DNA of 64,000 nucleotides from Candidatus Tayloriibacteriota bacterium (GCA_009694955.1 SIBZ01000002.1:1418-65417); one strand, 5' to 3'; shown: positions 11,580 through 43,364, counted from the stretch's first letter. Program-made: numbers and translations. Notes: a model not told the origin generated them from the letters alone.

Positions 11580-11655
11580 AGTTCGTATATAACCTTTAAG
11601 AGAGCCGTTTTGTGACAGCCTATTCGTGTGCGCTATTCGTTAAGCGTATCTACCA

Positions 11656-13853: not shown

Positions 13854-13857
13854 ATCG

Positions 13858-14075: not shown

Positions 14076-14077
14076 TG

Positions 14078-14908: not shown

Positions 14909-14909
14909 A

Positions 14910-21067: not shown

Positions 21068-22261
21068 CTATGTTGTCTTCGTACGGCAGTGCGTGAAAAC
21101 CTGCTCAAATGCTTTCGCGAGTACCGATGCATCAAGCGTCTTTGCCCTCGCGAGTGTTTGGTGCGCGCACAACGTGCGCAGTGGCGCGTTCTCTCCGAGC
21201 TCGGTGATGCGCGTACATAACTCTTCTGGATTCTCGTTTTGAAACGTGAGCGCCGTTTTGTCCGAAAGCCACTCGAGCGCTCCGCCACCGGGAATGATGG
21301 AAGGCAGGCCGAACGCCATCGCCTCGGTCAGTACCGCGGAGCCGTATTCTATCCACCATCGCGGAAAGATAAATACATGAGCGTCTTTGAAAAATCCGTA
21401 CAGTACTTCCCGCGGGACCCATCCGGGGAACGTGACCTCCCGTTCAATACCGAGCAAAACCGCCATCTTTTCCAGTTTTTCCTTTTCCGGTCCCCCTCCC
21501 GAAATAATTAAACGGTAACGTTCTCTACGTGGGAGGAGAGAAAATGCCCGAAGCAGGATATCGAATCCTTTTTCGGGAAGCATGCGTCCTGTGGCAAAAA
21601 GCGTCAGCACGGAACCATCCGCCTGATGCGAAGCGACCCGTTCGTCCGTAATCGCGTAGCGCTCCATAAGCGCGCGGGTTGCGATAAAATCCGGAATAAC
21701 GACTGTTGGTTTGTGTACCGCGATACCGAATGTCTTGTAGAGTTCCTGCACGTGAGGCGTATTGAAAATGAAGGCGTCCAGATGGTTCGCAATGGGTGCA
21801 CCGATATACCGCTCAAGCGCTCTCCTGATTTTCTTTTTACAGCGCCGATAGAAGGAAGGGTTCGCCACGGTACCCGACGTATCTCCCCACGCGTTAAGAC
21901 GGATATTGAAAAACCCGATGACGGGAACCTTCCCTCCAAGCAACCGGTACATTCCACCTCCGTAGAGAAACATATGACCGTCGATGTAGAGCGCATCCGC
22001 TTTGGATTCGAACTCTCGCAGGAGCGAAAAGATGCCACGTTGCAGACCAATAAGTGTGCGTGACGCGATACAGCGCTCCTCGACCGCGTACGGAAGCGCG
22101 CAGGGTATGCGGTCCGCGTTCGAAAACGCGGTGACAACCAAAACGTCGTGCCCGAGTTCTTGAAGCCCCTTCGCCTTCAAATGCACGTCAACAACCGAAC
22201 CACCGACGGGAGCCCCGTCAGTCTCAAAAACAAGTTTTGAAGTAATGCATACAATTCTCAT
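21068..22261 (-). CDS. GT-B glycosyltransferase (GT4-like)
   Basis: ATG at 22261, 397 aa. C-terminal half has GRMLPEKGFDILL...E(x7)E-like block EYGSAVLTEAMAFGLP. Confidence 0.8.
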   Translation of the reverse strand: MRIVCITSKLVFETDGAPVGGSVVDVHLKAKGLQELGHDVLVVTAFSNADRIPCALPYAVEERCIASRTLIGLQRGIFSLLREFESKADALYIDGHMFLYGGGMYRLLGGKVPVIGFFNIRLNAWGDTSGTVANPSFYRRCKKKIRRALERYIGAPIANHLDAFIFNTPHVQELYKTFGIAVHKPTVVIPDFIATRALMERYAITDERVASHQADGSVLTLFATGRMLPEKGFDILLRAFSLLPRRERYRLIISGGGPEKEKLEKMAVLLGIEREVTFPGWVPREVLYGFFKDAHVFIFPRWWIEYGSAVLTEAMAFGLPSIIPGGGALEWLSDKTALTFQNENPEELCTRITELGENAPLRTLCAHQTLARAKTLDASVLAKAFEQVFTHCRTKTT

Positions 22262-22317: not shown

Positions 22318-22995
22318 TTAGTATTCGACGCTCCGGTCGCCAGTGATGAGCTCAATATCAAGCAAAGATGGATTGGCTTTGAGAGCCTGCAACACCTCTG
22401 TGGCTTGAAGCTCATCCCGCAAACGGACCGAGAACACGAACGCGTCGACGCCTGGGGCGTGTGTTCTCGATTGGAGCAGTCCGAACGAGTCGGAATACTT
22501 TTTCAGTACCGAGAATACCGTGTTAATGTCAAGACGGTCCTTGGCGTTAAAGGTGAGAATAAAACCAGCGTTACTTGAAATACTACCGAAATTAAACCGG
22601 TCCAGCACCATAATGATGATTGAAATCAGCACGACCGAGATAAGGGCAACCGAATAATTGTTCGTACCGACGGCGATACCCGCGGCAAGCGCGAAGAACA
22701 GGAACGCCACATCGCGTGTTTCCTTAAGGATGGTCCGGAATCGGATGAACGAGAACGCGCCGAGGAGCGCCACCGCGCCGATGAGATTTTGCTGGACAAT
22801 CATCATAATGACGGTTCCCAAAATCCCCACAATGACGAGTGTAAACACGAAGGACGGAGCGTAAGAAAGACCGCGGTGCGTGCGCTTATACACCAGCACG
22901 ACGCACAGTTGTAACAAAAGAGAGAAGAGAATGTTCAGCACGATGATGGCTGCCGAAAGTTCTCCCGCGACGGTGAGATTATAGAAATTATTCAT
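22318..22995 (-). CDS. DUF4956-family integral membrane protein
   Basis: ATG at 22995, 225 aa with about 5 hydrophobic helices. The block LLGAFSFIRFRT...RDVAFLF matches my memory of DUF4956. Confidence 0.65.
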   Translation of the reverse strand: MNNFYNLTVAGELSAAIIVLNILFSLLLQLCVVLVYKRTHRGLSYAPSFVFTLVIVGILGTVIMMIVQQNLIGAVALLGAFSFIRFRTILKETRDVAFLFFALAAGIAVGTNNYSVALISVVLISIIIMVLDRFNFGSISSNAGFILTFNAKDRLDINTVFSVLKKYSDSFGLLQSRTHAPGVDAFVFSVRLRDELQATEVLQALKANPSLLDIELITGDRSVEY

Positions 22996-23004
22996 AACGT
23001 AACG

Positions 23005-23856
23005 TTATCGGGGTAATGGGTCTAAACGATTAAGCGCATCCACCGCGGAGACATACTTCGAGAATGCCTGCCGGGAGAGTTTGAAACGCCGGAGGATTTC
23101 CCCGAACCACCACGGCATCGCGTCTCGGAACTTTATCTCCATAATAACCGCCCCTTCCCGTATGGGGAGCATTGCAGGACTATTATAGGCAAAATCACGC
23201 CAATGGCAAGTTTGCAAATCGCTGTCAAACGTGACGCGGACGGGAAAAACGAACGACGAGACGTAGGCAGTACGACGGTATTTCACGACCGTCATCGGCC
23301 GGTATCCTTTCATAAGGTAGAGGAAAAAGAACTCCCTGAGAAAAGCGGATGTCTTTACAGCTTCATGCTTCAGAAGTCCAACCATATCTCGGTCGAGAAA
23401 CTGGCGCCAGAGGGAAACGGGCAATGCGCTTCTCTTTTTATGCACCGACATATCGTGTTTTTCTTTTATTTCGAGCCACACCGCTTCTATCTCCCCCGAA
23501 AAGTCGGACTGGTAGACACGCGCACGGAGTTTGCGCCGAAATTTCAGGCCGGCAAGCTTATCGTAATAGTCCTCGAGGGTTGGCGTGTCGAAATAGACGC
23601 TGGTGACGTGGTACGGTTCGGACACGGAGGCGCTGTCACGCCGGAGCCCGACATGCTCGAGATAGAGCTGTATCTCCTCCGCCTCCGCCCGCGAAAGTAC
23701 GTATTTGAACTCGTGTCGCAAGTGCCTTTGTGCAGACCGCCCTTCCTCCGTATGCACGGCCGCCTTCCCGTTCTGAAACCAAAAAACGCCGATGTGGTGG
23801 CGGAGTCTGGCGAACGGTTTTAAAGATACTGTATGATGCGTCTCTGATGTGCTCAT
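23005..23856 (-). CDS. VTC-domain (polyphosphate-polymerase-like tunnel domain) protein
   Basis: ATG at 23856; the track GTG at 23892 would overlap the CotH gene. SVYFDTPTLEDYYDKLAGLKFRRKLRARVY and VRVTFD blocks are typical of bacterial VTC-domain proteins. Confidence 0.65.
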   Translation of the reverse strand: MSTSETHHTVSLKPFARLRHHIGVFWFQNGKAAVHTEEGRSAQRHLRHEFKYVLSRAEAEEIQLYLEHVGLRRDSASVSEPYHVTSVYFDTPTLEDYYDKLAGLKFRRKLRARVYQSDFSGEIEAVWLEIKEKHDMSVHKKRSALPVSLWRQFLDRDMVGLLKHEAVKTSAFLREFFFLYLMKGYRPMTVVKYRRTAYVSSFVFPVRVTFDSDLQTCHWRDFAYNSPAMLPIREGAVIMEIKFRDAMPWWFGEILRRFKLSRQAFSKYVSAVDALNRLDPLPR

Positions 23857-23866
23857 GAAGTGAGAA

Positions 23867-26155
23867 CTAGAACCTATCGATGCGCGATACACTGTCCTGT
23901 TCAGAAGGAATCTTCACGTCCTCAAGGGTAACGGCCCGAACCGTGGCGACTCCTCCCTCGAACACCTCTTTCTTCCGATATGCCGAAATCCCGATGCCGG
24001 CGTGACGGATGGTTGTACTCGCTATCGTCGCGCGGGACGAATCTTTCACGGCAATACCTATCGCCACCTGTTCGATAACATTATCGAAAATATCGGGTGT
24101 TGAACTCTCTCCGACGCTGACTCCCTTATCCGTGCACCCGAGGATTTTGTTTCCGTTGATGCGCACCGTGCTCCAGCTGATATCGATGCAATCGCCCGCA
24201 TGAGGAACACCGGCGGTGCTCCCGATACCGACTTTTTGAAACACATTGTCGTGGATATGCGAATCGGGCCGGAGCATGTCGCCGTCAATCGCGTCGTGGA
24301 AGGTATTTTCGAAGAATGACCGCTCGATGAGAAGCGTTGATCCTTTCACGTTCAAAGCGTCGTCTTCTTCGGAGTGGGTAAATGACGTATTCCGTATTTC
24401 GACATCCGCGTCATGGAAAGCGACCATACCGGTGGCGGTGATGCCGTTTTGCTGGAGACCGGAACCGCCGTCAAACCGCACGAAGTCGAGCGAGCTTCGG
24501 TCGCGTTTTGTCCCCACAACAAAGAACGAACCCCACGCCGATTCCGGCTCGGCCCGGCGGAGGTACACGGGAGCTTCCGCTGTGCCCCGTACGTTTACCG
24601 GACTGTATGACACAATTGAGACGCCTTTGCCGAAATACAGCAGCGCACCCGGGTCAATCACGACGCGCATTCCCGCAGGCACGATGACCGTCTTTTGGAA
24701 GATATGCGTCCCGGACTCCAAAGCGACCATATCCAAGCCTCTCGGGACAAATTGCGGTTCCCGTGAGAGAAACGCATCCCTCGTTCCGTATGTCTCGTTA
24801 AAACGCTGGAATGAACCGGAAAAAACGAGTTTGCTTTTGTCGGAGGAAACCGCGGGGGGAGTATAGGTCGCGCGAAGTATTTGCTCCGCCTGTTGTATGT
24901 TTCCGGCAAAATACGCGCGGTCTGTTTTTATTTCCTTTGAAAATTCGAAGTTGGTGTCCTTTTTTGAGGCGTCTTTAAAGATATCGGCCTTTGCTTCGGA
25001 TACGACGCTATCATAGAACGCCAAGTCATCGGCTCCGTTCTGCGGGTCCGCAAGGTATTCCGAAAGCAACCGGTTGCGTTCGTCCTTGAAAGCGGGAATG
25101 GCAAGAATTCGCTTTGCCAAAGTCGTCCCTTCGGTAAACAAATCGTCAAGCGGTCCGACGAGCGTATCGACAGGCACAAGTTCAAACCGCCCAGTCGCAG
25201 TATTAAACAGCAAGCCGATATTCTCGAAATTATCGCGAGGATTTCCGGCAAGAATGGAAAGTATGTCCCACTTGTAAAACGACTCCATATCGATAATGCG
25301 CGGAGCCGCGCGGACAAACGTCTCGTCGTCGGCATAGTTGAGGATTTTGAGGAATGTATCGAGCGGTTCCTGATAGTTGACCGAGTCGGTGTAACTCTTC
25401 CAGAAGGTAAGCCCGTCTTGCGCGAACAAATTGACGAACGAACTGTAGTTCGAATCGTTACCACCCATAAGGTTTTTATCCCCGTCGTTAAAACCGTAGA
25501 GTATGGACGTTTCGGGCCACGGCTTTCCTTGTATGAGTTCCTTCGTCCAATGCGTGAAAGCGAGGTACACATTATCCCGTCCATTCACGTAGACGTTTAC
25601 CAAATGGGCGTCCCGCGTGAGCAAACCAAACTTTTCGGCGCGGTGCTGGTTCAGAAGTTCGGCGAAATAGTTTTTGTCGGACGGAATAATAAGAGAAACC
25701 GAACGTTGGCCGTGGAACGGCGCGTTGTTGGGAAATTCAAGCCGGAGCGACTTCTGCTGGCTGTTCCAATGGTTGGAATTGAGGCCGGCGTACCGCGCGT
25801 CCACCTGTCCCTGATAGTCCGGGGCCGAGAAGACCGCCTTGGTGAAGACCCGGTTCTCATCGAGACTAATCGAGGAAAACGGATCCTGGGGAAGATGCTC
25901 GTTCAAGTACGCAATACCCACGCGGTCAATCGAGAGTTTCCATACCGGCAGTGTGCCCGCGCGAAAATAATACGGAAAATAGAGCACGTCGGGTAGCTTC
26001 CGCAAAGAACGGTACGTCGGCAGGAATTGTTGTACCAACCGGTACTGCGTGAGATTGGCTTTGACCCTGTGCGGAAGCAAGACGAACAGAAGCACAAAAA
26101 AAACAGGCAGACAGGCAACTGCGCAGAGTATTTTTATTCTTTTTGCCCATAACAT
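23867..26155 (-). CDS. CotH-family atypical kinase with N-terminal membrane anchor and C-terminal parallel beta-helix domain
   Basis: ATG at 26155 (MLWAKRIKILCAVACLPVFFVLLFVLL); the 67-codon track extension was rejected. The CotH-like core includes SLRLEFP...LVNVYVNGRDNVYLAFTHW. The C-terminus has repeated short beta-helix-like turns (NVKGS..., DISWSTVRINGNKI..., GIAVKDSS...). Confidence 0.7.
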   Translation of the reverse strand: MLWAKRIKILCAVACLPVFFVLLFVLLPHRVKANLTQYRLVQQFLPTYRSLRKLPDVLYFPYYFRAGTLPVWKLSIDRVGIAYLNEHLPQDPFSSISLDENRVFTKAVFSAPDYQGQVDARYAGLNSNHWNSQQKSLRLEFPNNAPFHGQRSVSLIIPSDKNYFAELLNQHRAEKFGLLTRDAHLVNVYVNGRDNVYLAFTHWTKELIQGKPWPETSILYGFNDGDKNLMGGNDSNYSSFVNLFAQDGLTFWKSYTDSVNYQEPLDTFLKILNYADDETFVRAAPRIIDMESFYKWDILSILAGNPRDNFENIGLLFNTATGRFELVPVDTLVGPLDDLFTEGTTLAKRILAIPAFKDERNRLLSEYLADPQNGADDLAFYDSVVSEAKADIFKDASKKDTNFEFSKEIKTDRAYFAGNIQQAEQILRATYTPPAVSSDKSKLVFSGSFQRFNETYGTRDAFLSREPQFVPRGLDMVALESGTHIFQKTVIVPAGMRVVIDPGALLYFGKGVSIVSYSPVNVRGTAEAPVYLRRAEPESAWGSFFVVGTKRDRSSLDFVRFDGGSGLQQNGITATGMVAFHDADVEIRNTSFTHSEEDDALNVKGSTLLIERSFFENTFHDAIDGDMLRPDSHIHDNVFQKVGIGSTAGVPHAGDCIDISWSTVRINGNKILGCTDKGVSVGESSTPDIFDNVIEQVAIGIAVKDSSRATIASTTIRHAGIGISAYRKKEVFEGGVATVRAVTLEDVKIPSEQDSVSRIDRF

Positions 26156-26243
26156 ACAAATGGAGAATACCACGCAAATAGACGTGTTGCAAAGACCCGA
26201 AAAAGCGAAAAGTACCGCGGAAGCCGGACGTGTGCGGAGGCGC

Positions 26244-26624
26244 TTAGAGGAATTTTTTATCGTCCAAATACGGCCCGTTTTTGAATTCATAGAGGAGCGT
26301 CTCTTCGAGAAAATGAACCGCGTGGGCAACACCGAGAAGTACCGCCGCCTCCCCACTCTTCACGAGAAACGAACGGAAGCACTGCTTCTTCGCGTCATAC
26401 AGGTCTATGCGGAGTTTGCCACTGATGACGATAAGACCTTCCTGTAATACCTTCGTCACACGCTCTTTCGGCAGATGCAGGTGTGGCACGACGATATGCC
26501 CTTTCGCGCGTTTTTGGGTGAGGAGTTGGAGCGCCTGCTTCGGGTCGGTCACACCATGCGTTCCGTCCTTGAAGCGCTTCACGTGAATTGCCACCAGTTT
26601 TTTTCCTAAAAAGATGTTGTCCAT
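26244..26624 (-). CDS. Small cupin-fold protein (WbuC / sugar epimerase-isomerase-like)
   Basis: ATG at 26624; the track start at 26654 is a TTG. About 126 aa. VVPHLHLPKERVTKVLQEGLIVISGKLRIDLYD looks like a cupin HxH...E metal-site segment. Sits directly upstream of Gmd. Confidence 0.45.
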   Translation of the reverse strand: MDNIFLGKKLVAIHVKRFKDGTHGVTDPKQALQLLTQKRAKGHIVVPHLHLPKERVTKVLQEGLIVISGKLRIDLYDAKKQCFRSFLVKSGEAAVLLGVAHAVHFLEETLLYEFKNGPYLDDKKFL

Positions 26625-26673
26625 AGAGATGCGGTCGCCGGAGAACCGGCACAAGAGCGAAAGTTACTGAGCA

Positions 26674-27741
26674 TTAGACTTCAAACCGCCTTTGCGTTAC
26701 CACCGGATGTCCGAACGCGACTTCTTTCTTCACGTAGGCGAGGTCGTGCGTCGTCATAATCTTCGCGAGCTCAGAAAACGTGGTCTTGGGCTTCCACTTC
26801 AGAAGTTTTTTCGCTTTCGACGCGTCACCCTGTAGCAAATCAACCTCGTTCGGACGGAAGTAAATGGGGTCTATCACTATCACCGTCTTGCCTGTCTTTT
26901 TATCGATACCTTTTTCCGCAAGCCCCTTTCCTTTCCAGACAATCTCCATTCCGAGATTCTTCCCCACTTCTTCGACCCACTCGCGGACCGAACGGGTTTC
27001 TCCGGTTGCAATCACGAAATCGTCCGCCTCTTTGTATTGGACAATCTTCCAGATGGCTTCCACGTAGTCTTGGGAAAATCCCCAGTCGCGTTTCGCGTCC
27101 AGATTTCCGAGCGAGAGGACATCCTGCAGGCCGAGCGAAATCCGAGACAGCCCGACCGTTACCTTGCGCGTGACGAAGTTGAGACCGCGCCGGGGAGATT
27201 CGTGATTGAAAAGAATGCCGTTCGAAGCGAAAATGTCGTACGCGGTGCGGTACATGCGCGTGACGTAATACGCGAATACTTTTGAAAGGCCGTACGGGGA
27301 TTGTGGATTAAACGGAGTTTTTTCCGATTGCGGAATCTCCAAGACTTTCCCGAACATTTCGGACGAACTCGCCTGATAGAATTTCACCGGCATTTCCAGA
27401 TTACGGATGGTCTCGAGAATCCGGAGCGGGCCGAGCGCGTTCGTGTTTACGGTGAATTCCGGCACGTCGAAACTCACGCCGACATGGCTCTGCGCGCCGA
27501 GATTGTAAAACTCATCGGGTTCGATTTTCTTGATAATTCGGAGGAGGTTGGAGCTGTCGGAAAGGTCGGCATAGGCCATATTAAACCCTTTCCGCCCGTA
27601 CAGATGGTCAATACGCTCGGTATTGGGCACACTTGCCCGACGTTGGAGGCCATAGACTTCATAGCCCTTTTCCAAAAGGAGCTCCGCGAGATAGGAGCCG
27701 TCCTGACCGGTAATGCCCGAGATAATCGCTTTTTTTGCCAT
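26674..27741 (-). CDS. gmd: GDP-mannose (or GDP-heptose) 4,6-dehydratase
   Basis: ATG at 27741, 355 aa. [37 protein letters not shown] and RDWGF motifs present. Confidence 0.9.
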
Positions 27742-27789
27742 AGTATATATGTAACCTGCGCGAAGATTAAAAAATGACGGAGAAGAGCT

Positions 27790-28605
27790 CTAAGAAAACA
27801 TCGAACCTAAGGAACGGGCATCCTCATCGGTGAGATTCCACCCGAGTGCGCCGATGTTTTCCCTGAGGTGTTCTTTACTCCCGGCTTTCGGAATGGCACT
27901 GATGCCCTGCCTCACTATCCAATTGAGGGCAAGCTCGGCGGGTGTCTTTTTGTATCTTTGGGCAAGAGTGGCCAGTGCCTCGGATATGGTACCAAGAAGC
28001 GCGCCTTTTGCGAATGGTCGGTGCGCGATAACGTGTATGCCGTGCTTTTGGCAGAACGGGAGCATCTCGTGCTCCGCACTCCGCGACGCAAGGCTGTATT
28101 CAAGTTCGTGCACGGCAAGAGGCGTGTTCACGAGATTGGCTTGTGCCTCTTCGAGAAGCGGAAGAGAAAAATTACTCACGCCGATAGCGCGGACAAGCTT
28201 TCGTTCCACCAGCACTTCAAGGGCGCGCATTGTTTCCCGAAGCGGTATCGCTTCGTTCGGCCAATGGATGAGATACAGGTCGATATACGGTGTACCGAGA
28301 CGTCGGAGACTTCCCTCCGCCGCTGTAAGCACATCATCGAACCGCAGATGGTCCTTCCATACTTTTGAAATGACCGTAAGTGCATCACGTTTCCTCCCTC
28401 TAAGCGCTCTACCGACAAGTTCCTCGGTGAGTCCTTCTCCGTACAGTTCGGCGACATCAACCAGACGAAAGCCTAGGTCAAAACCGTACGAAAGAAGCTC
28501 GACTGATTCGTCCGCGTTGCCTTCGTCCCGTGTATATTTCCCTCCCATACCCCACGTTCCCATACCGAGGAGCGGGAAAGGTTTCCCAGATGTGTTGTCG
28601 TTCAT
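27790..28605 (-). CDS. Aldo/keto reductase
   Basis: ATG at 28605, in an ATGA overlap with the upstream stop; the track extension to 28695 was rejected. LGMGTWGMGG, DVAELYG and IDLYLIHWP motifs present. Confidence 0.85.
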   Translation of the reverse strand: MNDNTSGKPFPLLGMGTWGMGGKYTRDEGNADESVELLSYGFDLGFRLVDVAELYGEGLTEELVGRALRGRKRDALTVISKVWKDHLRFDDVLTAAEGSLRRLGTPYIDLYLIHWPNEAIPLRETMRALEVLVERKLVRAIGVSNFSLPLLEEAQANLVNTPLAVHELEYSLASRSAEHEMLPFCQKHGIHVIAHRPFAKGALLGTISEALATLAQRYKKTPAELALNWIVRQGISAIPKAGSKEHLRENIGALGWNLTDEDARSLGSMFS

Positions 28606-29822
28606 TCGATTCGGATTTTTGGAAACGGAATAATGAACGCGCCCCGATACTCCTTCGCACGCAGTTTCGGTATGAGCTCTTCTGAAAGGTTCCACGAAAG
28701 CATCAGCGCGTACTGCGGTTGCTCACTAAAGAGTATGCTCTCGTTTTTGACCGGAATATGGCTCCCGGGAGCATAGAGGCCGATTTTGTACTCGCTTTTC
28801 TCGAGCAAAGCTTCAACCGTTTGCGCCGTTATGCCGCACGAGTTGAGAAGTGTATTCCCTTTTGCCGGAGCCCCGATACCGACAATGCGCGCACCTGAGT
28901 GCCGGAGTTTCAAGAGGAGAGACTGCAGTTCTTTCATATGCGCGTGCGCCCTCTCCCCGAAGTCCGTATATGTTTTCAGGTCCTCGAGCCCGGCTTTCTT
29001 TTCCTCGGCCACAAGATTCGCGACCGATGCGCTCACAAGATGTGCTCCTTTGTGTCCGACAGACACTCTGATGGAACCGCTATGGCTCGGTATCCGCCGG
29101 ACATCGAATATTTCGAATCCAAAATCGGAGAAGAGACGGAGCATCGGCCGGAGCGAATAATACCGGAGATGTTCGTGATACACGGCATCATACCCTCCTG
29201 TCGTAATCATATCGAGAAGATATCCCGACTCCGACACGAACACACCATCAGGAGAAAGCAGTGCTTGTATTCCGCGCATAAACGATTCGAGGTCGGGGAC
29301 ATGCGCGAACACATTTGTCGCGGTAATAATCCGCGCGTGCCCGTATGTCTTCAACACAGACAGAGCGGTTGTCTCGTTAAAAAACTCACGAAGTGTGGGA
29401 ACACCTTCTTTTTTTGCAACCTCAGCCACACTCGACGGGTCTATCCCGAGCACTTTCGACCCGAACTTCCCATAGTTTTTGAGAAGCGTCCCGTCGTTGG
29501 AGCCAATATCGACGACGAAGTCGGTGCTCCCCAGTGCAAAACGGGTCCCCAGCTCTTCCACGAGTGCCGTAAAGTTCTCCCGGAGACTGTTGTTCATTCC
29601 GGTCGTGTAGACATACTCGGTAAAGAGTTCACGCGGGTCAACGGTAAAGCCAAGCTGTACCAAACCGCATTCCTCGCACAAACACAGAGCGAGCGGGTAG
29701 CTCGCTTCCGCTTTACCCGCGTCCTCTTCCCGCACAAACGCGTCGCTCGGTGACTGTGTGCCGAGGTCCAAAAACTTTTCGAGCCTTCGACTTTTACATA
29801 TATAACAGGATGTATGCTGCAT
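28602..29822 (-). CDS. NDP-sugar C-methyltransferase (TylCIII/EvaC-like; Zn-ribbon + class I MTase + C-terminal domain)
   Basis: ATG at 29822, 406 aa. N-terminal CxxC...CxxC (CYICKS...CEECG), then the MTase core VVDIGSNDGTLL, then a C-methyltransferase-type C-terminal domain. Confidence 0.75.
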   Translation of the reverse strand: MQHTSCYICKSRRLEKFLDLGTQSPSDAFVREEDAGKAEASYPLALCLCEECGLVQLGFTVDPRELFTEYVYTTGMNNSLRENFTALVEELGTRFALGSTDFVVDIGSNDGTLLKNYGKFGSKVLGIDPSSVAEVAKKEGVPTLREFFNETTALSVLKTYGHARIITATNVFAHVPDLESFMRGIQALLSPDGVFVSESGYLLDMITTGGYDAVYHEHLRYYSLRPMLRLFSDFGFEIFDVRRIPSHSGSIRVSVGHKGAHLVSASVANLVAEEKKAGLEDLKTYTDFGERAHAHMKELQSLLLKLRHSGARIVGIGAPAKGNTLLNSCGITAQTVEALLEKSEYKIGLYAPGSHIPVKNESILFSEQPQYALMLSWNLSEELIPKLRAKEYRGAFIIPFPKIRIE

Positions 29823-29833
29823 ACCTTCTCGCG

Positions 29834-31546
29834 CTACTGCAATTTATAGACGGCGACTATCGGCCCTGTGTGCTTCATCCTAAGAAGGTTTGAAATCGGT
29901 TTGCGGAGATTTTCGATATCTGCACTATACGTTCCCTCGGTTGCGTTTGCTGGAAACAGAGCGAACAATTTCTCGGGAGTGACGCCGAACTCTTTCGCTT
30001 CCTCGAGTATGTTCTTGTAATCGTCCTCCGTATGCCAGGTAAGAACGGCATACGCGAATTGATGCCGGTCGATTTCCGCAGGCACGCCGTTTGGGTATAA
30101 CGGCTGGAAGACAAAATAGTTCGGCGACGGGAACGCGCCGTCCGGAAGACCGAGGAGATACTCCTGCCGTTTCTGCAGAAAAGAAGGGTTAAGCCGTTTG
30201 GTAAGTTCGATGGACGCGCGGTTTTCGTTAATCGTAAGATACGCGTCAAAATCCAGTATCTTTGTTCCTGCCGGAACGGTCGTGTACAGCCACCGGAGGA
30301 ACTGTTGCTGGGTCGTCTCCTGCATCAGCCGGTAATCAAACATAACGGGGAGATACAGGGAAACAAGCGTGAAGGCAAGCACAAGTACGATTTTCACGCT
30401 CTTCGCGCGCATCGTGAGTCTTTCTCTCCACAAAGACACGAGACCGTACGCGGCGATACCGGCGAGAAACGGAACGACAGGCGCGATGTAGTGCGGTTGG
30501 GCGCGCATACTTCCAAGAAACGGGCCGATGACGAGGTAATACCCGACGACAAATGACGAGAGGAGGTAGAACACCTCTCTGTTTTTCTTAAAGAGCCGGT
30601 ACGCGCCTATAAGTGAGAGGAAGATGAGCAACGGAGCGTACTCAAAGAGCACCCCCGCGTAAAAGAAGGAGCCTTGCAAGAAATTCGCGTCCGGGTCCGC
30701 CGTACGGCCGGCGGTACCCAGCGCCGCATCCGCGGATTGATTGAAGTAATTCTGGAATCCGAAAGGGTTCAGATAATACGTGAGTGCAACACCGAGGACG
30801 AAAGTTATGTTGCATACCCAAAAGTGTTTATGCAGAACAAACGTCTCGAGTAAATTCTTTCCTTTGTGCCGATAATACTGGGCGACGAGAAACGGAAGAT
30901 AGACGAGTACGCCGACGACGTGCGTGGCAAACGCGACGGAGGTGAGAAGGCCGATGAGTACGTAATCGCGCAAACGGACCGTCGGCGCGCGGTAGAACCT
31001 CACGATGCAGTAGAGAGCGAGCAGGATGGTGAACATCTGCGGTATCCACACCTTGCCGAAGTGCGAAAGAAACACGAACCACGCGTCGGTCGCGAGAAGA
31101 AATACGGCGGTCAGCGCCACGGGAGCGTCGTCGAACAATTTCCGGCAGATTTTATACAGCAGATACAGGCACGCGACTCCGAGCGCGACGGAAATAAAGC
31201 GCGCGAACGGTAAAAGCCGGCCATATTCGAGCGTGCCGAATTGTACAAGCAGAGCAACGCTTCCGAACAGCCCCGAAAGCCTGAGAAAGAGGAGGAGTCC
31301 AGCAAAAAACGGCAGATAGAGATACGCACCCGCCGGCATATGGTAGTTGGTCGGATAGTCGGGACGGAGCGACGGCTCGGCCATCATCTTTAGGCTCGAC
31401 GCCATAAGCACTGTTTCGTCCCCGATGGTGGTCGTGAGCGGATAATTGTAAAACATCCCGACCGTCGCGAGTACGACAAAGATTCCGAGCAGTATCGGGA
31501 GTATGTAGGACTGTTTCAATGCGCCGTGTGTTGTAAGAATGCTCAT
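29834..31546 (-). CDS. GT-C fold membrane glycosyltransferase (ArnT/PMT, GT39/83-like)
   Basis: ATG at 31546, in an ATGA overlap with the LAB_N stop; the track extension to 31687 was rejected. More than 10 hydrophobic helices, an acidic first-loop motif (IGDETV) and a soluble C-terminal domain of about 150 aa. Confidence 0.65.
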   Translation of the reverse strand: MSILTTHGALKQSYILPILLGIFVVLATVGMFYNYPLTTTIGDETVLMASSLKMMAEPSLRPDYPTNYHMPAGAYLYLPFFAGLLLFLRLSGLFGSVALLVQFGTLEYGRLLPFARFISVALGVACLYLLYKICRKLFDDAPVALTAVFLLATDAWFVFLSHFGKVWIPQMFTILLALYCIVRFYRAPTVRLRDYVLIGLLTSVAFATHVVGVLVYLPFLVAQYYRHKGKNLLETFVLHKHFWVCNITFVLGVALTYYLNPFGFQNYFNQSADAALGTAGRTADPDANFLQGSFFYAGVLFEYAPLLIFLSLIGAYRLFKKNREVFYLLSSFVVGYYLVIGPFLGSMRAQPHYIAPVVPFLAGIAAYGLVSLWRERLTMRAKSVKIVLVLAFTLVSLYLPVMFDYRLMQETTQQQFLRWLYTTVPAGTKILDFDAYLTINENRASIELTKRLNPSFLQKRQEYLLGLPDGAFPSPNYFVFQPLYPNGVPAEIDRHQFAYAVLTWHTEDDYKNILEEAKEFGVTPEKLFALFPANATEGTYSADIENLRKPISNLLRMKHTGPIVAVYKLQ

Positions 31547-31866
31547 AGTGACGTCTCTCGTTGCTCTTCTGAAATTTCGCGCAGAGCTGAAGCTTTGGTT
31601 GTTTTGCGTATCAAGAAAAGATTTCTCCCATAGATAAGCAGTCCCAAACCTTGTCCCACAATGAACACCGGGTCGCCTATGTGCCATGCATACACGAACA
31701 GAATGGCTCCGCCGACAATGCTAAAATACCAGAATGCGATGGGGACAACGCTTTCGCCTTTCCGTTCAGACACTATCCACTGAATCACGAACCGCATGAA
31801 AAAACCGGCTTGCCCGAGAAAGCCGACCACAACCCACCACGTAACACCAATCCCTAAAAATGTCAT
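31543..31866 (-). CDS. Lipid-A-biosynthesis N-terminal domain (LAB_N) small membrane protein
   Basis: ATG at 31866, 107 aa, 3 TM. GQAGFFMRFVIQWIVSERKGESVVPIAFWYFSIVGG matches the LAB_N pattern. Confidence 0.7.
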   Translation of the reverse strand: MTFLGIGVTWWVVVGFLGQAGFFMRFVIQWIVSERKGESVVPIAFWYFSIVGGAILFVYAWHIGDPVFIVGQGLGLLIYGRNLFLIRKTTKASALREISEEQRETSL

Positions 31867-31871
31867 AGTAT

Positions 31872-33479
31872 CTACAATGTAAACGTCCGGGTAATACGCG
31901 TCTGTCCGTCCTCCTCGTCTACCTGTATGCGCGGAAGCAGTGTGTTTCCAATACTATCATGAACACTATAATACCGCGCACTCGGTATAAAGTTATATGA
32001 TGCGTCGGTTCCGTACCGCACCGGCATGCTCGGATTTTCTTTTTTGAACCGGTCGATGACGATGATGCGCTCCGCCTCAAGAATAATGTCGCGCTCAAAA
32101 AAGCGGTCCGACACCACAGAGGTACTGACCATTTTTTTCCGCAACAGCCGTTTTACCCACGTGCCGGTCGTTTCAAACCGGCCAAGCGTCAGCTGAAAAA
32201 TACGAAATGCCGAAAGGAGGAGCGGGCGCATCATTGGTTCGCGGATTGGTTTGAAATACCCTTTCACATGGAGCTTTCCTTCCGCATACGACACGCGGGA
32301 GCGCCGGTCGAGCGACTGCGTCGTACACGGTTTGCCCGAAAACACGGTCTCGATGCCGGAATCGGTGTACCGTCCCGCCAAAGTAGTGATAACAAAACTT
32401 CCTCCCTTGTACATATTCGCGATAATCTGCCGTCGTGGTGAACGCTCTGTATAGATGCCGGATTCACTCAAAAAGAGAGGCGGTTCTGCGAGCACCGCAG
32501 ACGAAGTCTCGGCGTGTTGTTTCGCTTCGCCCGCGAGCAAACCCGCCTCCAGCCAATTAGAGAGGAGGAAGCACACATACCGGTCATCGAGATTGGACGG
32601 CTGTAACCCTTTCCCCTCTTTCAAAGCGCGGTGCGCGTGCAGAAGTAACTCCTTGGCAACAACGTCGCGGGACGCGAGCCGCGCGACGCCGGACGGGATG
32701 AGGTATTCGGTATTGCGCGACATAAAAGTCCCTCCGAACGTACCGTCCATATGCGCGCATAACCTTAGAAACTTCGTCGATGTCCGCAGTGCCTGAAATA
32801 TCCGCTCGTCCTTGCTCCATACGGCGTACAGCGAAAGATAGTCCACCGTCAAGGAGAGATACCCCGCATCGGGACCTCCATACTCCGGCCACCACCCTTC
32901 TTTCGATTGCGCGGTAAGGAGATGCTGTGCATGTTGCTTCGCCGCTTTCTCGAACGAGGCGTCTTTTGTCGCGCGGTACACGGCGTACAGCGCGCAGACT
33001 CCGCCGGCAAGCTGGTTATATGCCGTTGTCTCGGTATGCCTCGCGAGCCACTTCCCCGCTTTTGTAAGTGCCATACACACCTTTTCTCTTGGAAGACTTG
33101 CGTCTTCGGGGAGTATCAAGATTGTCTTGGCAAGCGCCACCGTGACAAAAGCCGTGCACACAAATGAGTGTTCGAACGGATACCATTCGTCGAACGAACC
33201 ATCCGAGCGTTGCAGAGACACTGCGAACAGGAGCGCGGCATTAATCCACTCAAGGACGCGCTTGTCGCCCGCGTAGCTGTTTCCCGGAAACGGATGCGCG
33301 TAGAGGAGCGCGAGCGCGAACACCGCCTCTTGGTGACGGGCACAGCTGAAATCACGCGAACGATGCAACCAGTACGCGCGGTCAAACGAACCGTACGTCG
33401 ATGATGACGGATTCCGATTAAGCTGTCCGAGCAGTCTCGGGACCTCATGAAGCGCACGCTGTAAAAAGAGAGTATCCAC
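31872..33479 (-). CDS. Hypothetical 535-aa protein; helical (alpha/alpha-toroid-like) N-terminal half and beta-rich C-terminal half (heparinase II/III-like layout is only a guess)
   Basis: GTG start at 33479, with no in-frame ATG near the 5' end. The long ORF is co-oriented and tightly packed in the operon. I recognise no family motif with confidence. Confidence 0.6.
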   Translation of the reverse strand: MDTLFLQRALHEVPRLLGQLNRNPSSSTYGSFDRAYWLHRSRDFSCARHQEAVFALALLYAHPFPGNSYAGDKRVLEWINAALLFAVSLQRSDGSFDEWYPFEHSFVCTAFVTVALAKTILILPEDASLPREKVCMALTKAGKWLARHTETTAYNQLAGGVCALYAVYRATKDASFEKAAKQHAQHLLTAQSKEGWWPEYGGPDAGYLSLTVDYLSLYAVWSKDERIFQALRTSTKFLRLCAHMDGTFGGTFMSRNTEYLIPSGVARLASRDVVAKELLLHAHRALKEGKGLQPSNLDDRYVCFLLSNWLEAGLLAGEAKQHAETSSAVLAEPPLFLSESGIYTERSPRRQIIANMYKGGSFVITTLAGRYTDSGIETVFSGKPCTTQSLDRRSRVSYAEGKLHVKGYFKPIREPMMRPLLLSAFRIFQLTLGRFETTGTWVKRLLRKKMVSTSVVSDRFFERDIILEAERIIVIDRFKKENPSMPVRYGTDASYNFIPSARYYSVHDSIGNTLLPRIQVDEEDGQTRITRTFTL

Positions 33480-33492
33480 GAAATGTTATTTC

Positions 33493-34854
33493 CTACTTAC
33501 GGCACCTGATAGTGATAACCGAACCGAACATTCCGCACGTCATGAGCCCTTGAACACCAAGGATCCACTTCAGAAACTTCAGGATAACACTTTTTGGCAC
33601 TTCACGGTGCAGATACGTGGTACCGCCACTACGGATATACTGAAGCATCATTTCATACAACGTCTCGATAAAAGCTGGAACGGCAAAGTATCCGGACCAG
33701 GTACTATCGGTAAACCCCGCGTCGCGCAGTTCCCGGAGAATATGCCTCCTGGAAATCGGACGGTACGGACCGAAAAAGTTATAGATTCCGGTATGCCGGA
33801 TATCTTTCCCGAAACAGAGCTTCACTGCACCGAAAAAGACGTACCAAAACAGATGCGACTTCCTGGCTACGATGATGTAGTCGCCTCCTGCATCAAGCGT
33901 CGCGTATACCTTCGAAAAAAGTGGGCGGATTGCCTCGTGCGGAAGACGCTCGAGTTTGTAAATCGTGGTGATTGTCGATACCGGCTTTCGTACAATCCGC
34001 TCAGCCTTCTCGTCGTACACTTGGTATGACACGGGAGCAGCGCGCTTGCACTTTTGCTCGATGGAAGCTTTCGTGTACGCCGATACCTCCGCCGAGAGGT
34101 CCACCGCGGTCATATCGCCCTCCGGAAAATAGGTAACATAACTGCCGTCATACGAAAAGAGGTCCACGACGGGTGTCCGTATGGATTGCAGTTCTTTTTT
34201 GACGACTTCCCGCTCGAACATACTCGCGCTGTCCATTTCTTTTCCCAATGTCGTCTTACGGCAGTAGTACCGTTGGTGCATCCGCAAACTGTCGAGCGTC
34301 CAGTCGTCCGGATTGTAGGAAAACGGAGGCACTGTCCGCACCTCGGCGCGAAATGAACCGATATGGAGCATTTCCGAAACAGGACGGCGCACGATGGCAG
34401 GCTGTGTGTCTGCCTTTTCATCGGGATACCCGAGCGTCACAAAACAGCAAATGGTTTCCGACGCGGGGATATGCAATATCTTTTTGACCTTTTCGTCCGA
34501 CCCGTAGCTGTTCATGGGAGATGCATGCACTCCAAAGTAGGTAGCCGCGAGCATAAGGTGTCCGAGCATCAGACTGCCTCCTTGTATCGCCTCCTTGTAG
34601 TTCCAGCCGTCATAGGTAATCACGAGAAGCGCCGGAGCCCGCCTCACGAGCGTATTGCAGGCGGCTTCTTTGATTAACCTCTCCTTTGTTTTTGCGTCAT
34701 CAACAAAGATAAAATTCTGCAATTGCTGATTGCAGTTTGTGGGGGCATATGACGCAACCTCGATAATACTCTTCACCAGGTCGAGTGGAACCGGCTTGGC
34801 GGAAAACGACCTAATCGTCTTACGCTCCTTCACAATGTCAAGAAAGTCCTTCAT
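33493..34854 (-). CDS. Nitroreductase-domain protein fused to a degenerate methyltransferase-like C-terminal domain
   Basis: ATG at 34854; the track start at 34860 is a TTG. The N-terminal ~185 aa are nitroreductase family (RKTIRSFSAKPVP...APTNCNQQ). In the C-terminal ~265 aa, DLFSYDGSY sits where motif I DxGCGxG would be, and LDAGGDYIIV where LxPGGxxxi would be. Confidence 0.75.
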   Translation of the reverse strand: MKDFLDIVKERKTIRSFSAKPVPLDLVKSIIEVASYAPTNCNQQLQNFIFVDDAKTKERLIKEAACNTLVRRAPALLVITYDGWNYKEAIQGGSLMLGHLMLAATYFGVHASPMNSYGSDEKVKKILHIPASETICCFVTLGYPDEKADTQPAIVRRPVSEMLHIGSFRAEVRTVPPFSYNPDDWTLDSLRMHQRYYCRKTTLGKEMDSASMFEREVVKKELQSIRTPVVDLFSYDGSYVTYFPEGDMTAVDLSAEVSAYTKASIEQKCKRAAPVSYQVYDEKAERIVRKPVSTITTIYKLERLPHEAIRPLFSKVYATLDAGGDYIIVARKSHLFWYVFFGAVKLCFGKDIRHTGIYNFFGPYRPISRRHILRELRDAGFTDSTWSGYFAVPAFIETLYEMMLQYIRSGGTTYLHREVPKSVILKFLKWILGVQGLMTCGMFGSVITIRCRK

Positions 34855-35812
34855 GTGCAAAATGCTCCTTTATCGCGACAATCTTTTTTTCCGTACTGCC
34901 GTTCCTGATGACAAGCTCGCCGATAAAACCGATAGAGAAGGACTGGAAACCGAGGAGAACAAGCAAGGTGCCAAGCATAAGGAGTGGCCGGTTGCCGATA
35001 AGCTCGCCGGCGAACAGTTTCGCGTACAAAAGATACGAGAGAATACCCATGCCGACGGTAAACACGAAGGTGCCCAAAAATCCGAACAGATACATCGGAC
35101 GGTCGGTGAAGTTCCGGAGAAAAATCAGCGTAATGAAATCGAAGGCGCTGTTGAAGAAGCGGACAAAGCCGTATTTGGAAACTCCGTGCCGGCGGGGGCG
35201 GTGTTCCACCACTATCTCACCGATGCGGTACCCCATCCCTGAAACCAGCGCCGGGATATAGCGGTGCATATCTCCGAAGAGCTCGATACTTTGGGCAACA
35301 TGTTTCTTGTAGATTTTGAAACAGCAGTTCATATCATGCACCGATGTTCTGGTGAAGAATTGCGTGAGGGCGTTCGCGATTTTTGACGGCAGTCTTTTGA
35401 CTATCGGGTCGTGCCGGCGTTTTCTCCATCCACAGACAAGGTCCATATCGCTTTCCTCCATCTGCGCAATGAACGACGGAATTTCTTTCGGATTATCCTG
35501 AAGGTCGCCGTCCATCGTGACGATATAGCGTCCCCGAGCCTCTCTGAAACCGAATTGAAGCGCCTGAGCCTTTCCAAAATTTCGGGTGAACGAAAAGACG
35601 CGGACAGGATTCAGCGTGCGTAGTTGTCTTAAGGTTCCATCCGTCGAACCGTCATCGACAAAAATAATTTCGTACGGCTTATGGAGTGACTGCAGTACTG
35701 TCAGAAGTTCCTGGTGCAGTTCCCGCACTGACCCCTCTTCGTTGTACACGGGGATAACGACGGAAAGAAATAGCTCTTTTGTGTCAGGCATAGGTCTATT
35801 ATTTTGCCACAT
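34838..35812 (-). CDS. GT2 polyprenyl-phosphate glycosyltransferase (GtrB/ArnC type, two C-terminal TM helices)
   Basis: ATG at 35812 (an in-frame ATG at 35791 is also possible). LSVVIPVYNEE, DDGSTDGT and DGDLQD motifs, with a C-terminal TM pair. Confidence 0.85.
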   Translation of the reverse strand: MWQNNRPMPDTKELFLSVVIPVYNEEGSVRELHQELLTVLQSLHKPYEIIFVDDGSTDGTLRQLRTLNPVRVFSFTRNFGKAQALQFGFREARGRYIVTMDGDLQDNPKEIPSFIAQMEESDMDLVCGWRKRRHDPIVKRLPSKIANALTQFFTRTSVHDMNCCFKIYKKHVAQSIELFGDMHRYIPALVSGMGYRIGEIVVEHRPRRHGVSKYGFVRFFNSAFDFITLIFLRNFTDRPMYLFGFLGTFVFTVGMGILSYLLYAKLFAGELIGNRPLLMLGTLLVLLGFQSFSIGFIGELVIRNGSTEKKIVAIKEHFAHEGLS

Positions 35813-35843: not shown

Positions 35844-37646
35844 TTAGAAGGCGCAGAGGCTCTTCCCTGCCGAGGTAAAGACTTTCGTGAGCCCTGGAAT
35901 CCGCAAAAGCACCTCTCCGTCAAGTGAACTGTCGGAAAGGATAAAATCCAATCTGTACTTCTGTAACTCCGTCCTGAACTCTTTTGTCAGAAACGCTCGG
36001 TACCTTTCGGGAAACGCAGAAAGACGCTCCTCAAGCACCGGGTCGGAGAAATCGGGAAAATCCTTCACCCCGAACAGTCCTTGCCAGTTTGAGAAGAGAT
36101 ACCCAGATGCCTCGCTTCTATGAGCGCGTATATACTCGTCAATGTCCACGGGGAGTATTCCTCTGAGACGGAGGAGTGCGAGATATCCGTCTTCTCCCCT
36201 TGTATCCGGTATAAGCGAGTTCATTTCCGTCGACACATACCGGTTGCAGTGCGTAAATGCGGGGATAAGCGTGTTCAGTTCCGACATCTCCGCATCGGTT
36301 TCATTCACAAAGACAACGCACTCTTTTTCCCGCGTGTTCAGAAAATCGAACAACGCCTTATACACCTGCATCCTTGCGTAGTACGGTACGGCGGCGGTAT
36401 ATGCTTGCACCTGCGTATACACGCCCAGACAGACCGACAACAAAATTACGCCGGAAACGAACATGTTTGAGAGATACCTCTGCATAGGTCGTATGCAGTT
36501 GTAAATAGAAACCATCAACACGAGCATCGCGAGCGGAATGGTGTACTGCACAAAGTGGTACGGCCATATCGTTTCTCCCGTGAGTATTTGCTGGCTGTAT
36601 GTCCATATCCCTCCCAAGAGGAGCGAGAGGTTGAAGCAGTGCCACGTCTCCACGCTCCACTCGATTCCCCTTCTTTTTTTCCAAAGAAAATCAAATGCGA
36701 GTATGACGGCAAAGAAGAACAGTGTGGCAAGGAGAAACTTGTTCCAGAGCGGGTAGTGCGTCAGAAATAACCCGCTGCGCAAAACGGAAGACGCGTACCA
36801 GGGGCTGTGCGTCGCCTGCCATGCGCCATACCAATACGGTGACGCGAGCAGGATTCCGAACGGGATGACGAGCGTAAGGTTCCCCGCAGTCGCGTACTTT
36901 TTGCGCGCAACGAGAATCAGGATAAGCAGGACAAGTACCGAGAATGCCGTACCCCAGCTGAAGAAATAACTCCCGAACATAAGCGCGAGAAACACCGACG
37001 CCGTCACGATAGCCGTTTTACGTCGGATGGTGTTCTGCACAATCGCCAAGACGGAAAGAAGAAACGAAAATAAAAAGAGGGCGCCGAGAATCGGATTGAC
37101 CGGACGCGCCCAGAGCAGAAATGAATTCGGTACGCCGGAACCGGACACATACGAAAGCATTGTGCGGTAGTCAACGAGGTCATACCCCAGCGTAACGAGA
37201 AGACCGCAGGCAATCGCCATCGCTTCCCGTGACCTCCCTTCCCCTTGTGCGAGCCGGAAGGCAAGCGCGTACACCAGGAGGAATAGTATCGGGGGAAAGA
37301 AGAATTTACTCACCACGAGCACGGTCGCGGGAGAGATACCGAAGAGTATCGCCGGAAGCGCGTAGACCCATTCTCCCGTGGACGGAGAGAGCGGGACTCC
37401 TTCTTTGTACTCAAAGAAAAACGGAGAGCTCACCGCGCCGTGACCGTCGACGATTTCCTGAATTCTCCCGAGATACGACCCTTCATTCGGTGTTTGAAGG
37501 AGAGGTATACCGCGATATGAGCTGAAATCGCCGAAAATGAAAAAGATGTTCGGCAAGCCATAGAGGAGTCCTACGCCGATTGCGACGGCGACAGCAAGAC
37601 GCTTTAGCCGTACGAGAGAAGAAAGACGCTGAAAAGGGGAAATCAT
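35844..37646 (-). CDS. Large polytopic membrane protein (~430-aa multi-TM region + ~170-aa soluble C-terminus); possible GT-C/polymerase
   Basis: ATG at 37646, 600 aa with more than 10 hydrophobic segments. No motif that I can name. Confidence 0.65.
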   Translation of the reverse strand: MISPFQRLSSLVRLKRLAVAVAIGVGLLYGLPNIFFIFGDFSSYRGIPLLQTPNEGSYLGRIQEIVDGHGAVSSPFFFEYKEGVPLSPSTGEWVYALPAILFGISPATVLVVSKFFFPPILFLLVYALAFRLAQGEGRSREAMAIACGLLVTLGYDLVDYRTMLSYVSGSGVPNSFLLWARPVNPILGALFLFSFLLSVLAIVQNTIRRKTAIVTASVFLALMFGSYFFSWGTAFSVLVLLILILVARKKYATAGNLTLVIPFGILLASPYWYGAWQATHSPWYASSVLRSGLFLTHYPLWNKFLLATLFFFAVILAFDFLWKKRRGIEWSVETWHCFNLSLLLGGIWTYSQQILTGETIWPYHFVQYTIPLAMLVLMVSIYNCIRPMQRYLSNMFVSGVILLSVCLGVYTQVQAYTAAVPYYARMQVYKALFDFLNTREKECVVFVNETDAEMSELNTLIPAFTHCNRYVSTEMNSLIPDTRGEDGYLALLRLRGILPVDIDEYIRAHRSEASGYLFSNWQGLFGVKDFPDFSDPVLEERLSAFPERYRAFLTKEFRTELQKYRLDFILSDSSLDGEVLLRIPGLTKVFTSAGKSLCAF

Positions 37647-43328: not shown

Positions 43329-43335
43329 AGTGGTA

Positions 43336-43364
43336 AGTATCAATGCTCAAGTATCAATTTTCAA
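43336..43364 (-). promoter_or_regulatory. Candidate sigma70-like promoter giving a leaderless or near-leaderless SIS mRNA
   Basis: The minus strand reads TTGAAA-17 nt-GATACT-7 nt-ATG(43328). Confidence 0.35.

Follow-up and report, generated by a model that had tools for sequence, protein, structure and literature searches.

What sugar is prepared by a compact group of four genes in a member of Candidatus Taylorbacteria (Patescibacteria, candidate phyla radiation)? The genes occupy positions 26244-29822 of a 64,000-nucleotide stretch of DNA (GCA_009694955.1, SIBZ01000002.1:1418-65417), which is referred to as a whole as the window, and they encode a sugar C-methyltransferase (C-MT), an aldo/keto reductase (AKR), a GDP-mannose 4,6-dehydratase (Gmd) and a small cupin. 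The initial annotation proposed a branch for a GDP-linked, C-methyl branched deoxysugar or, alternatively, for a deoxyheptose. Our analysis supports the former proposal through the domains and residues of the C-MT, the assignment of the dehydratase as a true Gmd, and a related arrangement in which a short-chain dehydrogenase/reductase (SDR) replaces the AKR. Collectively, these observations point, with fair probability, to a GDP-linked C-methyl 6-deoxyhexose as the product, derived from GDP-mannose and intended for a cell-surface glycan of Patescibacteria.

The four genes are open reading frames (ORFs) on the minus strand, and the four-gene unit is called the cassette below:

28602-29822, minus strand: sugar C-MT, 406 residues, by its Pfam domains
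27790-28605, minus strand: AKR, 271 residues (PF00248)
26674-27741, minus strand: Gmd, 355 residues (PF16363, TIGR01472)
26244-26624, minus strand: WbuC-like metal-type cupin, 126 residues (TIGR04366 below cutoff, AlphaFold2, Foldseek)

A PMT_2 GT-C gene lies upstream of the C-MT gene at a distance of 11 nucleotides (nt), and the AKR/Gmd and Gmd/cupin gaps measure 48 and 49 nt. The spacing between the C-MT and AKR genes is -4 nt; the ATGA overlap described earlier is real and was read in the sequence at 28605-28602 (...CGA ATC GAA TGA AC...), where the AKR ATG (28605-28603) overlaps the C-MT TGA (28604-28602). One boundary had to be corrected. The cupin had been extended to 26654, an upstream TTG, whereas every homologue begins at the methionine of MDKIF..., which places the ATG start at 26624. 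Promoter and terminator scans of 25900-32000 gave counts close to the shuffled expectation and no site inside the intergenic gaps, and are thus uninformative on operon structure.

Predicted functions of the four enzymes

The C-MT matches three Pfam families, all above their cutoffs: the Zn-binding domain PF08421 (74 bits), the class I methyltransferase domain PF13489 (67 bits) and the C-terminal domain PF08484 (154 bits). This is the three-domain architecture of the TylCIII/TcaB9/KijD1/MtmC family, in agreement with the TylCIII/EvaC-type enzyme suggested at the outset. The C-terminal domain is the one whose absence from a profile search had been named as grounds for abandoning the idea, and with its detection that objection does not arise. 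Among solved relatives, MtmC (4rv9) scores 290 bits (38% identity over 399 residues), KijD1 (5t64) 273 bits and TcaB9 (3ndi) 258 bits; all three are dTDP-sugar 3-C-methyltransferases. Cys6, Cys9, Cys49 and Cys52 of the C-MT align with the four Zn cysteines of TcaB9. Similarly, Tyr70, His174, Tyr215, Glu217 and His218 align with TcaB9 Tyr76, His181, Tyr222, Glu224 and His225, residues that Bruender and Holden reportedly probed by mutagenesis. In an alignment, the Zn cysteines and the five active-site-aligned residues are all invariant in 24 homologues. Given its genomic context beside Gmd, the C-MT would methylate a carbon adjoining the 4-keto group of the Gmd product, and C3 is, by analogy with all its solved relatives, the most likely site.

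The dehydratase is predicted to be a Gmd and not a heptose-type enzyme. It matches PF16363 (438 bits) and NCBIfam TIGR01472 (491 bits; equivalog cutoff 415). It shares 56% identity with Aquifex aeolicus Gmd (2z1m) over 337 ungapped residues (417 bits), and nine solved Gmds, the human enzyme included, score 387-417 bits. In contrast, the Campylobacter jejuni GDP-heptose 4,6-dehydratase 7us5, the single heptose-dehydratase comparator, reaches only 119 bits. Gmd motifs are present throughout, namely GxTGQDG (as GITGQDG), Ser127/Glu128, Tyr150/Lys154 and NHESPRRG. The Gmd-type assignment made earlier is thereby confirmed at the level of TIGR01472 and solved-structure scores, and a heptose dehydratase identity was rejected on the score for the same profile and on the 417 versus 119 bits.

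The AKR matches PF00248 (199 bits) and carries the catalytic tetrad of this fold (Asp50, Tyr55, Lys81 and His114). Its nearest solved relatives are Thermotoga maritima AKRs (5dan and 6kik, 224 bits), and the NCBIfam DkgB and DkgA models match it well under their cutoffs. By sequence it would be a generic, short AKR of the DkgA/DkgB-like type. The role of the enzyme must be read from its context because sequence alone gives no pointer to sugar nucleotides.

The cupin has no Pfam match, and its sole profile match is NCBIfam TIGR04366 (WbuC; E 2.3e-8, 34 bits), below the cutoff of 42. A profile search recovered 457 homologues, nearly all of 126-133 residues, several of which (44-54% identity) are named 'cupin fold WbuC family metalloprotein' in the JGI annotation. 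His48, His50, Glu62 and Gly69 are invariant among 54 sequences and His101 is at least 90% conserved; together they form the classical HxH...E...H metal site, with a longer loop between HxH and Glu. An AlphaFold2 model based on the 54-sequence alignment is an all-beta barrel with a predicted local distance difference test score (pLDDT) of 91.9 and a predicted template modelling score (pTM) of 0.83. It superseded a first model from an 11-sequence alignment, which had a pLDDT of 74 and weak generic fold matches. In Foldseek, the cupin matches metal-dependent cupins (E 4e-6 to 5e-5, template modelling (TM) scores about 0.55-0.70), including Ni-quercetinase, Bacillus subtilis cysteine dioxygenase (TM 0.70), archaeal phosphomannose isomerase and D-lyxose isomerase, as well as the cupin domain of Staphylococcus aureus CapF (E 2.3e-5). 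These matches are generic for cupins. WbcA was a poor structural match, seen only with the first, lower-quality model, and a profile search against PDB sequences gave no match at E up to 10.

It had been suggested that the cupin could act as a 3,5-epimerase or a ketoisomerase. Neither an RmlC-type epimerase (PF00908) nor an FdtA-type ketoisomerase (PF05523) identity has profile support, and ten aligned homologues give only weak matches to Cupin_1, Cupin_2, DUF1971 and DUF6016; a true FdtA gene in one related locus (L001) is recognised by PF05523, unlike the cupin. What stands of the suggestion is a WbuC-like metal cupin for which an epimerase or isomerase role is plausible from its position. 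In all contexts examined, the cupin gene comes after that of Gmd. The two are separated in one Patescibacteria lineage, where a 23S rRNA intervening-sequence protein (PF05635) is encoded between them (L001 9219-9596, L002 7597-7974), the sole Gmd/cupin interruption met among the loci. Literature searches on WbuC returned annotation-level mentions only, and no functional study was found.

Conservation and exchange of partners in related loci

Window proteins were mapped onto 102 related loci. The neighbourhood statistics refer to 80 loci from a metagenome scan with an alignment query; a genome-contig scan with a single protein query gave 8 loci, 5 of them useful. Those of the 120 closest C-MT homologues that carry a source name come nearly all from Patescibacteria, and the cupin shares 100% identity with a protein from a metagenome-assembled genome of Candidatus Taylorbacteria. 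Where the C-MT is at least 49% identical and at least 900 bp lie downstream, an AKR follows it directly in 22 of 23 loci, against 0 of the 57 loci with lower identity. This pattern makes the AKR a clade-specific and seemingly obligate companion of the present C-MT.

The full order C-MT, AKR, Gmd, cupin occurs in at least 10 distinct Patescibacteria loci with C-MT identities of about 50-68%, usually with a membrane protein of 600-624 residues before it and a GT4 glycosyltransferase after it. The arrangement is not due to chance, since numerous independent contigs from metagenomes and genomes show this order.

A related arrangement bears directly on the reductase. In Levybacteria-type contigs, a Gmd (65-67% identity) and a cupin (40%) are followed by an SDR of 219-263 residues and, after it, a C-MT that is only about 30% identical to that of the window; the SDR occupies the AKR position in L095, L097 and one more contig. 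Thus, the Gmd/cupin pair has twice acquired a C-MT and a reductase as neighbours, independently and with different reductase folds. The presence of an SDR at this position argues that the AKR is the ketoreductase of the pathway and that Gmd feeds the C-MT, and it is the strongest argument available. Profile scans found in the cassette no other reductase and no nucleoside diphosphate (NDP)-hexose 2,3-dehydratase. Based on this missing step and on the replacement of the AKR by an SDR, we infer that reduction of the 4-keto group with NAD(P)H falls to the AKR, in line with the earlier idea that an AKR serves here in place of the usual SDR.

The two halves of the cassette also occur apart. A further arrangement, found in the loci below, has a nucleotide-sugar dehydrogenase and an extended SDR of 322-328 residues ahead of this C-MT/AKR pair (51-53% and 38-40% identity, respectively) and contains neither Gmd nor cupin:

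L098/L099, 4806-9029: C-MT/AKR without Gmd/cupin
L023, 7632-12035: C-MT/AKR without Gmd/cupin
L100, 6014-11033: C-MT/AKR without Gmd/cupin

Contigs with C-MT/AKR and without Gmd include marine ones, 'Woesearchaeota'-labelled ones and others. The extended SDR resembles 4,6-dehydratases and UDP-4-keto-pentose synthases, and such an arrangement may make a C-methyl pentose or another branched sugar. Its position beside the C-MT/AKR genes indicates that the pair works on 4-keto sugars from different generators. Conversely, L101 has Gmd/cupin but lacks a C-MT within 6 kb. The best description of the cassette is a combination of two portable gene pairs, one formed by C-MT and AKR and the other by Gmd and cupin. 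On its opposite strand, L098 has an additional, divergent C-MT.

This modularity raises the question of whether the pairs cooperate at all. Gmd and the cupin might make an ordinary rhamnose-, talose- or fucose-type GDP-6-deoxyhexose, while the C-MT and AKR act on another nucleotide-activated 4-keto sugar from elsewhere in the locus. The solitary Gmd/cupin of L101 and the C-MT/AKR loci with a dehydrogenase and another SDR agree with such a separation, and keto-sugars could be supplied by two other extended SDRs of the window:

53988-54857: extended SDR
9217-10248: extended SDR

However, Gmd is the only 4-keto generator adjoining C-MT/AKR in cassettes of the window type, and the AKR is the only cassette reductase available to Gmd and the cupin. 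Moreover, the four genes stay contiguous across at least 10 loci with varying flanks, and the union of Gmd/cupin with a very different C-MT (about 30% identity) and an SDR arose independently. We therefore regard two unrelated pathways as unlikely.

Proposed pathway and alternative substrates

From the observed family memberships and conserved residues, a route to a GDP-linked C-methyl 6-deoxyhexose can be proposed, in which the substrates, the order of steps, the regiochemistry and the stereochemistry are inferred. As a member of its family, Gmd would oxidise C4 of GDP-mannose and dehydrate C5/C6 to give GDP-4-keto-6-deoxy-D-mannose. The metal cupin would probably epimerise or isomerise this keto-sugar beside the ketone, in the manner of the CapF Zn cupin domain; this is the weakest step. 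Subsequently, the C-MT would deprotonate the carbon alpha to the 4-keto group, most likely C3 by analogy, and add the methyl group of S-adenosylmethionine. The AKR, which is translationally coupled to the C-MT, would then reduce the 4-keto group with NAD(P)H. Finally, the resulting GDP-6-deoxy-3-C-methyl-hexose might be used by the GT4 glycosyltransferase, by the 600-residue membrane protein, or by both.

Several points weigh against this route. We know of no AKR that acts as a GDP-4-keto reductase, and the present one is nearest in sequence to generic DkgA/DkgB-like AKRs. GDP use and C3 regiochemistry are extrapolations for the C-MT, because all its solved relatives use dTDP-linked 2,6-dideoxy or 3-amino substrates. 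The cupin falls under the curated WbuC cutoff, and no function is known for WbuC itself. The separate occurrence of Gmd/cupin in L101 and of C-MT/AKR without Gmd means that the pairs could serve separate sugars. Among the window ORFs of at least 200 residues that were scanned, there is no phosphomannomutase and no clear ManC, while a GDP-heptose set is present. The route as a whole is predicted from sequence and gene context.

The heptose set is the basis of the principal alternative substrate. The window contains the following genes:

42717-43343: SIS protein, GmhA-like
38528-39514: GHMP kinase, HddA-like
50094-50810: HAD phosphatase, GmhB-like
49348-50097: nucleotidyltransferase
43411-44133: transaldolase

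The GDP-heptose pathway reported nearby is thus present in outline, and every match is under its curated cutoff. If GDP-heptose were the substrate, the cassette would yield a C-methyl 6-deoxyheptose by a Campylobacter-like series of dehydratase, cupin epimerase and reductase. In C. jejuni, GDP-6-deoxyheptose is made by a 4,6-dehydratase, C3/C5 cupin epimerases and C4 reductases, which follows the same logic (PMC10680097). The two systems share the GDP carrier, the enzyme series, a surface polysaccharide as destination and nearby heptose genes, and the lack of a recognisable phosphomannomutase or ManC among the scanned ORFs also fits a heptose. Furthermore, the 10 kb upstream of the cassette contain heptose genes in L005/6, L007, L009, L020 and L021, and C-MT homologues of about 40% identity adjoin heptose genes in L042, L053, L060 and L068. 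In contrast, the window dehydratase is by its scores an orthodox Gmd, whereas that of C. jejuni belongs to another SDR branch; the C. jejuni route also lacks C-methylation and uses RmlC-like epimerases and SDR reductases. In addition, no heptose genes lie within 6 kb in L095, L096, L097, L101 and L102. Proximity to heptose genes carries little weight because these loci are large sugar-gene islands. Collectively, the nearby genes on which the deoxyheptose proposal was built are there, but the substrate itself is disfavoured, and we consider it improbable.

The heptose-adjoining C-MT homologues deserve a separate remark. In L042, L053, L060 and L068 (also L057, L062 and L067), homologues of about 37-41% identity adjoin GHMP-kinase, HAD, nucleotidyltransferase and SIS genes, and no Gmd was detected near them. 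These neighbourhoods hint at C-methylated heptoses in other bacteria.

A different chemistry on the same GDP-hexose would place the action at C3. The genes for TylCII and EryBII adjoin C-MT genes, cupins can be 3,4-ketoisomerases (FdtA/QdtA), and FdtA-type enzymes are not known to use the metal-binding motif. Reduction of a 3-keto group by the AKR before methylation, as in mycarose clusters with the AKR12 enzymes TylCII and EryBII, NDP-hexose reductases that serve in making C-methyl sugars (PMC10923870), or chemistry around C3 after 3,4-ketoisomerisation by the cupin, is very unlikely: no NDP-hexose 2,3-dehydratase, which is needed for a 3,4-diketo sugar, occurs in the cassette or among the scanned window ORFs, the AKR is nearest to the DkgA/DkgB type and is set apart from AKR12 by description, and the cupin has a full metal-binding motif and no PF05523 match, whereas the L001 FdtA gene is recognised.

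Known systems and the surrounding glycan island

Most of what is known about C-methyl branched sugars comes from actinomycete antibiotics, in which dTDP is the carrier, and in surface glycans they are documented for few organisms, for example as virenose in Coxiella. The late steps of dTDP-L-mycarose synthesis are carried out by the C-methyltransferase TylC3, the 5-epimerase TylK and the 4-ketoreductase TylC2. As in the GDP-hexose route proposed here, they act on a 4-keto-6-deoxy sugar, which receives a C-methyl group, is epimerised by an enzyme of the cupin fold and is finally reduced at C4. Likewise, TcaB9, KijD1 and MtmC resemble the C-MT in their three domains, Zn site and aligned catalytic residues. 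However, mycarose-type systems belong to antibiotic pathways and differ in their dTDP carrier, 2-deoxygenated sugars, RmlC-type epimerase and SDR reductase.

A GDP-linked counterpart had been described as unusual for a surface glycan locus. This was overstated, given a precedent in Coxiella burnetii (PMC3539893) and the frequency of the cassette in Patescibacteria. For virenose (6-deoxy-3-C-methyl-gulose), a GDP route was proposed in silico in 2012, with a Gmd (CBU_0689), a TylCIII-like protein (CBU_0691) and a GDP-fucose-synthase-like protein (GMER, CBU_0688) (PMC3539893). A 2026 review mentions virenose, and neither 'methyltransferase' nor CBU_0691 occurs in it (PMC13552124). The virenose route and the cassette, both known in silico, have in common a Gmd, a TylCIII-family C-MT, 4-keto reduction, the GDP carrier and a surface glycan; CBU_0691 is likened here by its published description. 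In contrast, virenose synthesis relies on GMER, an SDR epimerase/reductase, whereas the cassette has an AKR and a separate WbuC-like cupin: tested against a Coxiella-type route, it contains Gmd and C-MT and no GMER-type SDR. The hosts differ as well, the cassette being that of a Patescibacteria bacterium without lipopolysaccharide.

For the cupin, the closest functional parallel is CapF of S. aureus, in which a Zn cupin domain epimerises a UDP-4-keto-6-deoxy sugar before the SDR domain reduces it on the way to UDP-L-FucNAc (PMC5393024). In both cases, a small metal cupin would take a nucleotide-linked 4-keto-6-deoxy sugar as its substrate, immediately ahead of the ketoreduction step, as proposed here. 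Unlike CapF, the cassette cupin is a stand-alone protein, would work with GDP instead of UDP, and has no detectable sequence similarity to solved chains. The best profile match of the cupin remains the WbuC cupins of O-antigen loci, below the cutoff. For the AKR, the AKR12 enzymes TylCII, EryBII and AveBVIII offer a precedent as AKRs in C-methyl deoxysugar pathways (PMC10923870). They differ from it as actinomycete proteins of about 330 residues that reduce C3 after 2,3-dehydration; the cassette AKR has 271 residues, is DkgA/DkgB-like and has no 2,3-dehydratase partner.

In other words, the logic of the pathway is already known, and what differs from characterised systems is GDP as carrier, an AKR as reductase, a WbuC-like cupin as partner and Patescibacteria as host. 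Literature searches on the C-MT/AKR/Gmd cassette and on Patescibacteria surface glycans did not find the C-MT/AKR/Gmd/cupin cassette described. Patescibacteria are episymbiotic and largely uncultivated, and their surfaces mediate attachment to the host; the cassette provides one of the first concrete predictions on their cell-surface chemistry. A compact, conserved, GDP-based cassette would give a tractable four-enzyme system for GDP-linked C-methylation, and its enzymes could serve glycodiversification. It also suggests a function for uncharacterised WbuC-like cupins and, if the proposal is true, adds GDP-4-keto-sugar reduction to AKR chemistry.

A broader interpretation is offered tentatively, as its combined claims are somewhat doubtful when taken jointly. 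C-MT/AKR might be a portable 'methylate then reduce' pair in Patescibacteria and other uncultivated lineages, serving different 4-keto generators, either Gmd with a Zn-cupin or a dehydrogenase with an extended SDR, the latter possibly a decarboxylase. The AKR might then be the first AKR-type GDP-4-keto-sugar reductase, the WbuC-like cupin might be the partner epimerase of Gmd, a first function for this family, and the C-methyl 6-deoxyhexose might be a widespread surface signature of Paceibacteria.

Genes flanking the cassette are also partly conserved:

35844-37646, minus strand: polytopic membrane protein of 600 residues, no family, with 7 hydrophobic segments (hydropathy, 19-residue window)
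29834-35812: five inserted genes, encoding PMT_2 GT-C, LAB_N, a 535-residue protein, a nitroreductase-domain protein and GT2
22318-26356, minus strand: CotH-kinase/beta-helix, VTC-domain and DUF4956 proteins, a block between the cupin and GT4
21068-22261, minus strand: GT4 glycosyltransferase, 397 residues (PF00534, PF13439)

The 600-residue protein has no Pfam or NCBIfam match. Its homologues (600-624 residues, 42-61% identity) lie immediately upstream of the C-MT in L001-L010, L017, L020, L021 and L022; in the window, the five inserted genes (about 6 kb) separate the two. It is possibly a transferase or polymerase for the sugar. Homologues of GT4 (50-65% identity) come after the cupin gene in L001-L006, L008, L009, L017 and L021, and GT4 is a candidate transferase for the GDP-sugar product. 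The CotH/VTC/DUF4956 trio is also found together upstream of the cassette in L022. As listed, the CotH ORF overlaps the 3' end of the cupin by 112 nt, probably through an over-extended GTG start of the CotH ORF. A GT9 gene (heptosyltransferase family) lies a few kb from the cassette in L096 (10339-11400) and L102 (8573-9673), which is unexpected because Patescibacteria are thought to lack lipopolysaccharide.

The 64-kb window is a single continuous glycan island, almost wholly on the minus strand. At 45691-48013 (minus strand), a B12-binding radical SAM enzyme adjoins a small nucleotidyltransferase; its best match, which falls far under the cutoff, is to P-/C-methyltransferase families. L007 (1966-4293) keeps the order transaldolase, SIS, NTP-transferase, radical SAM, as L021 does in part, and the radical SAM gene may represent a second sugar modification in the same locus. 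Finally, a nonulosonic-acid set occupies 4230-4967 and 9217-15656 (minus strand), with a PseB/Polysacc_synt_2-type dehydratase, a class III aminotransferase, a NeuC-like 2-epimerase, NeuB, two CMP-type cytidylyltransferases and an SDR.

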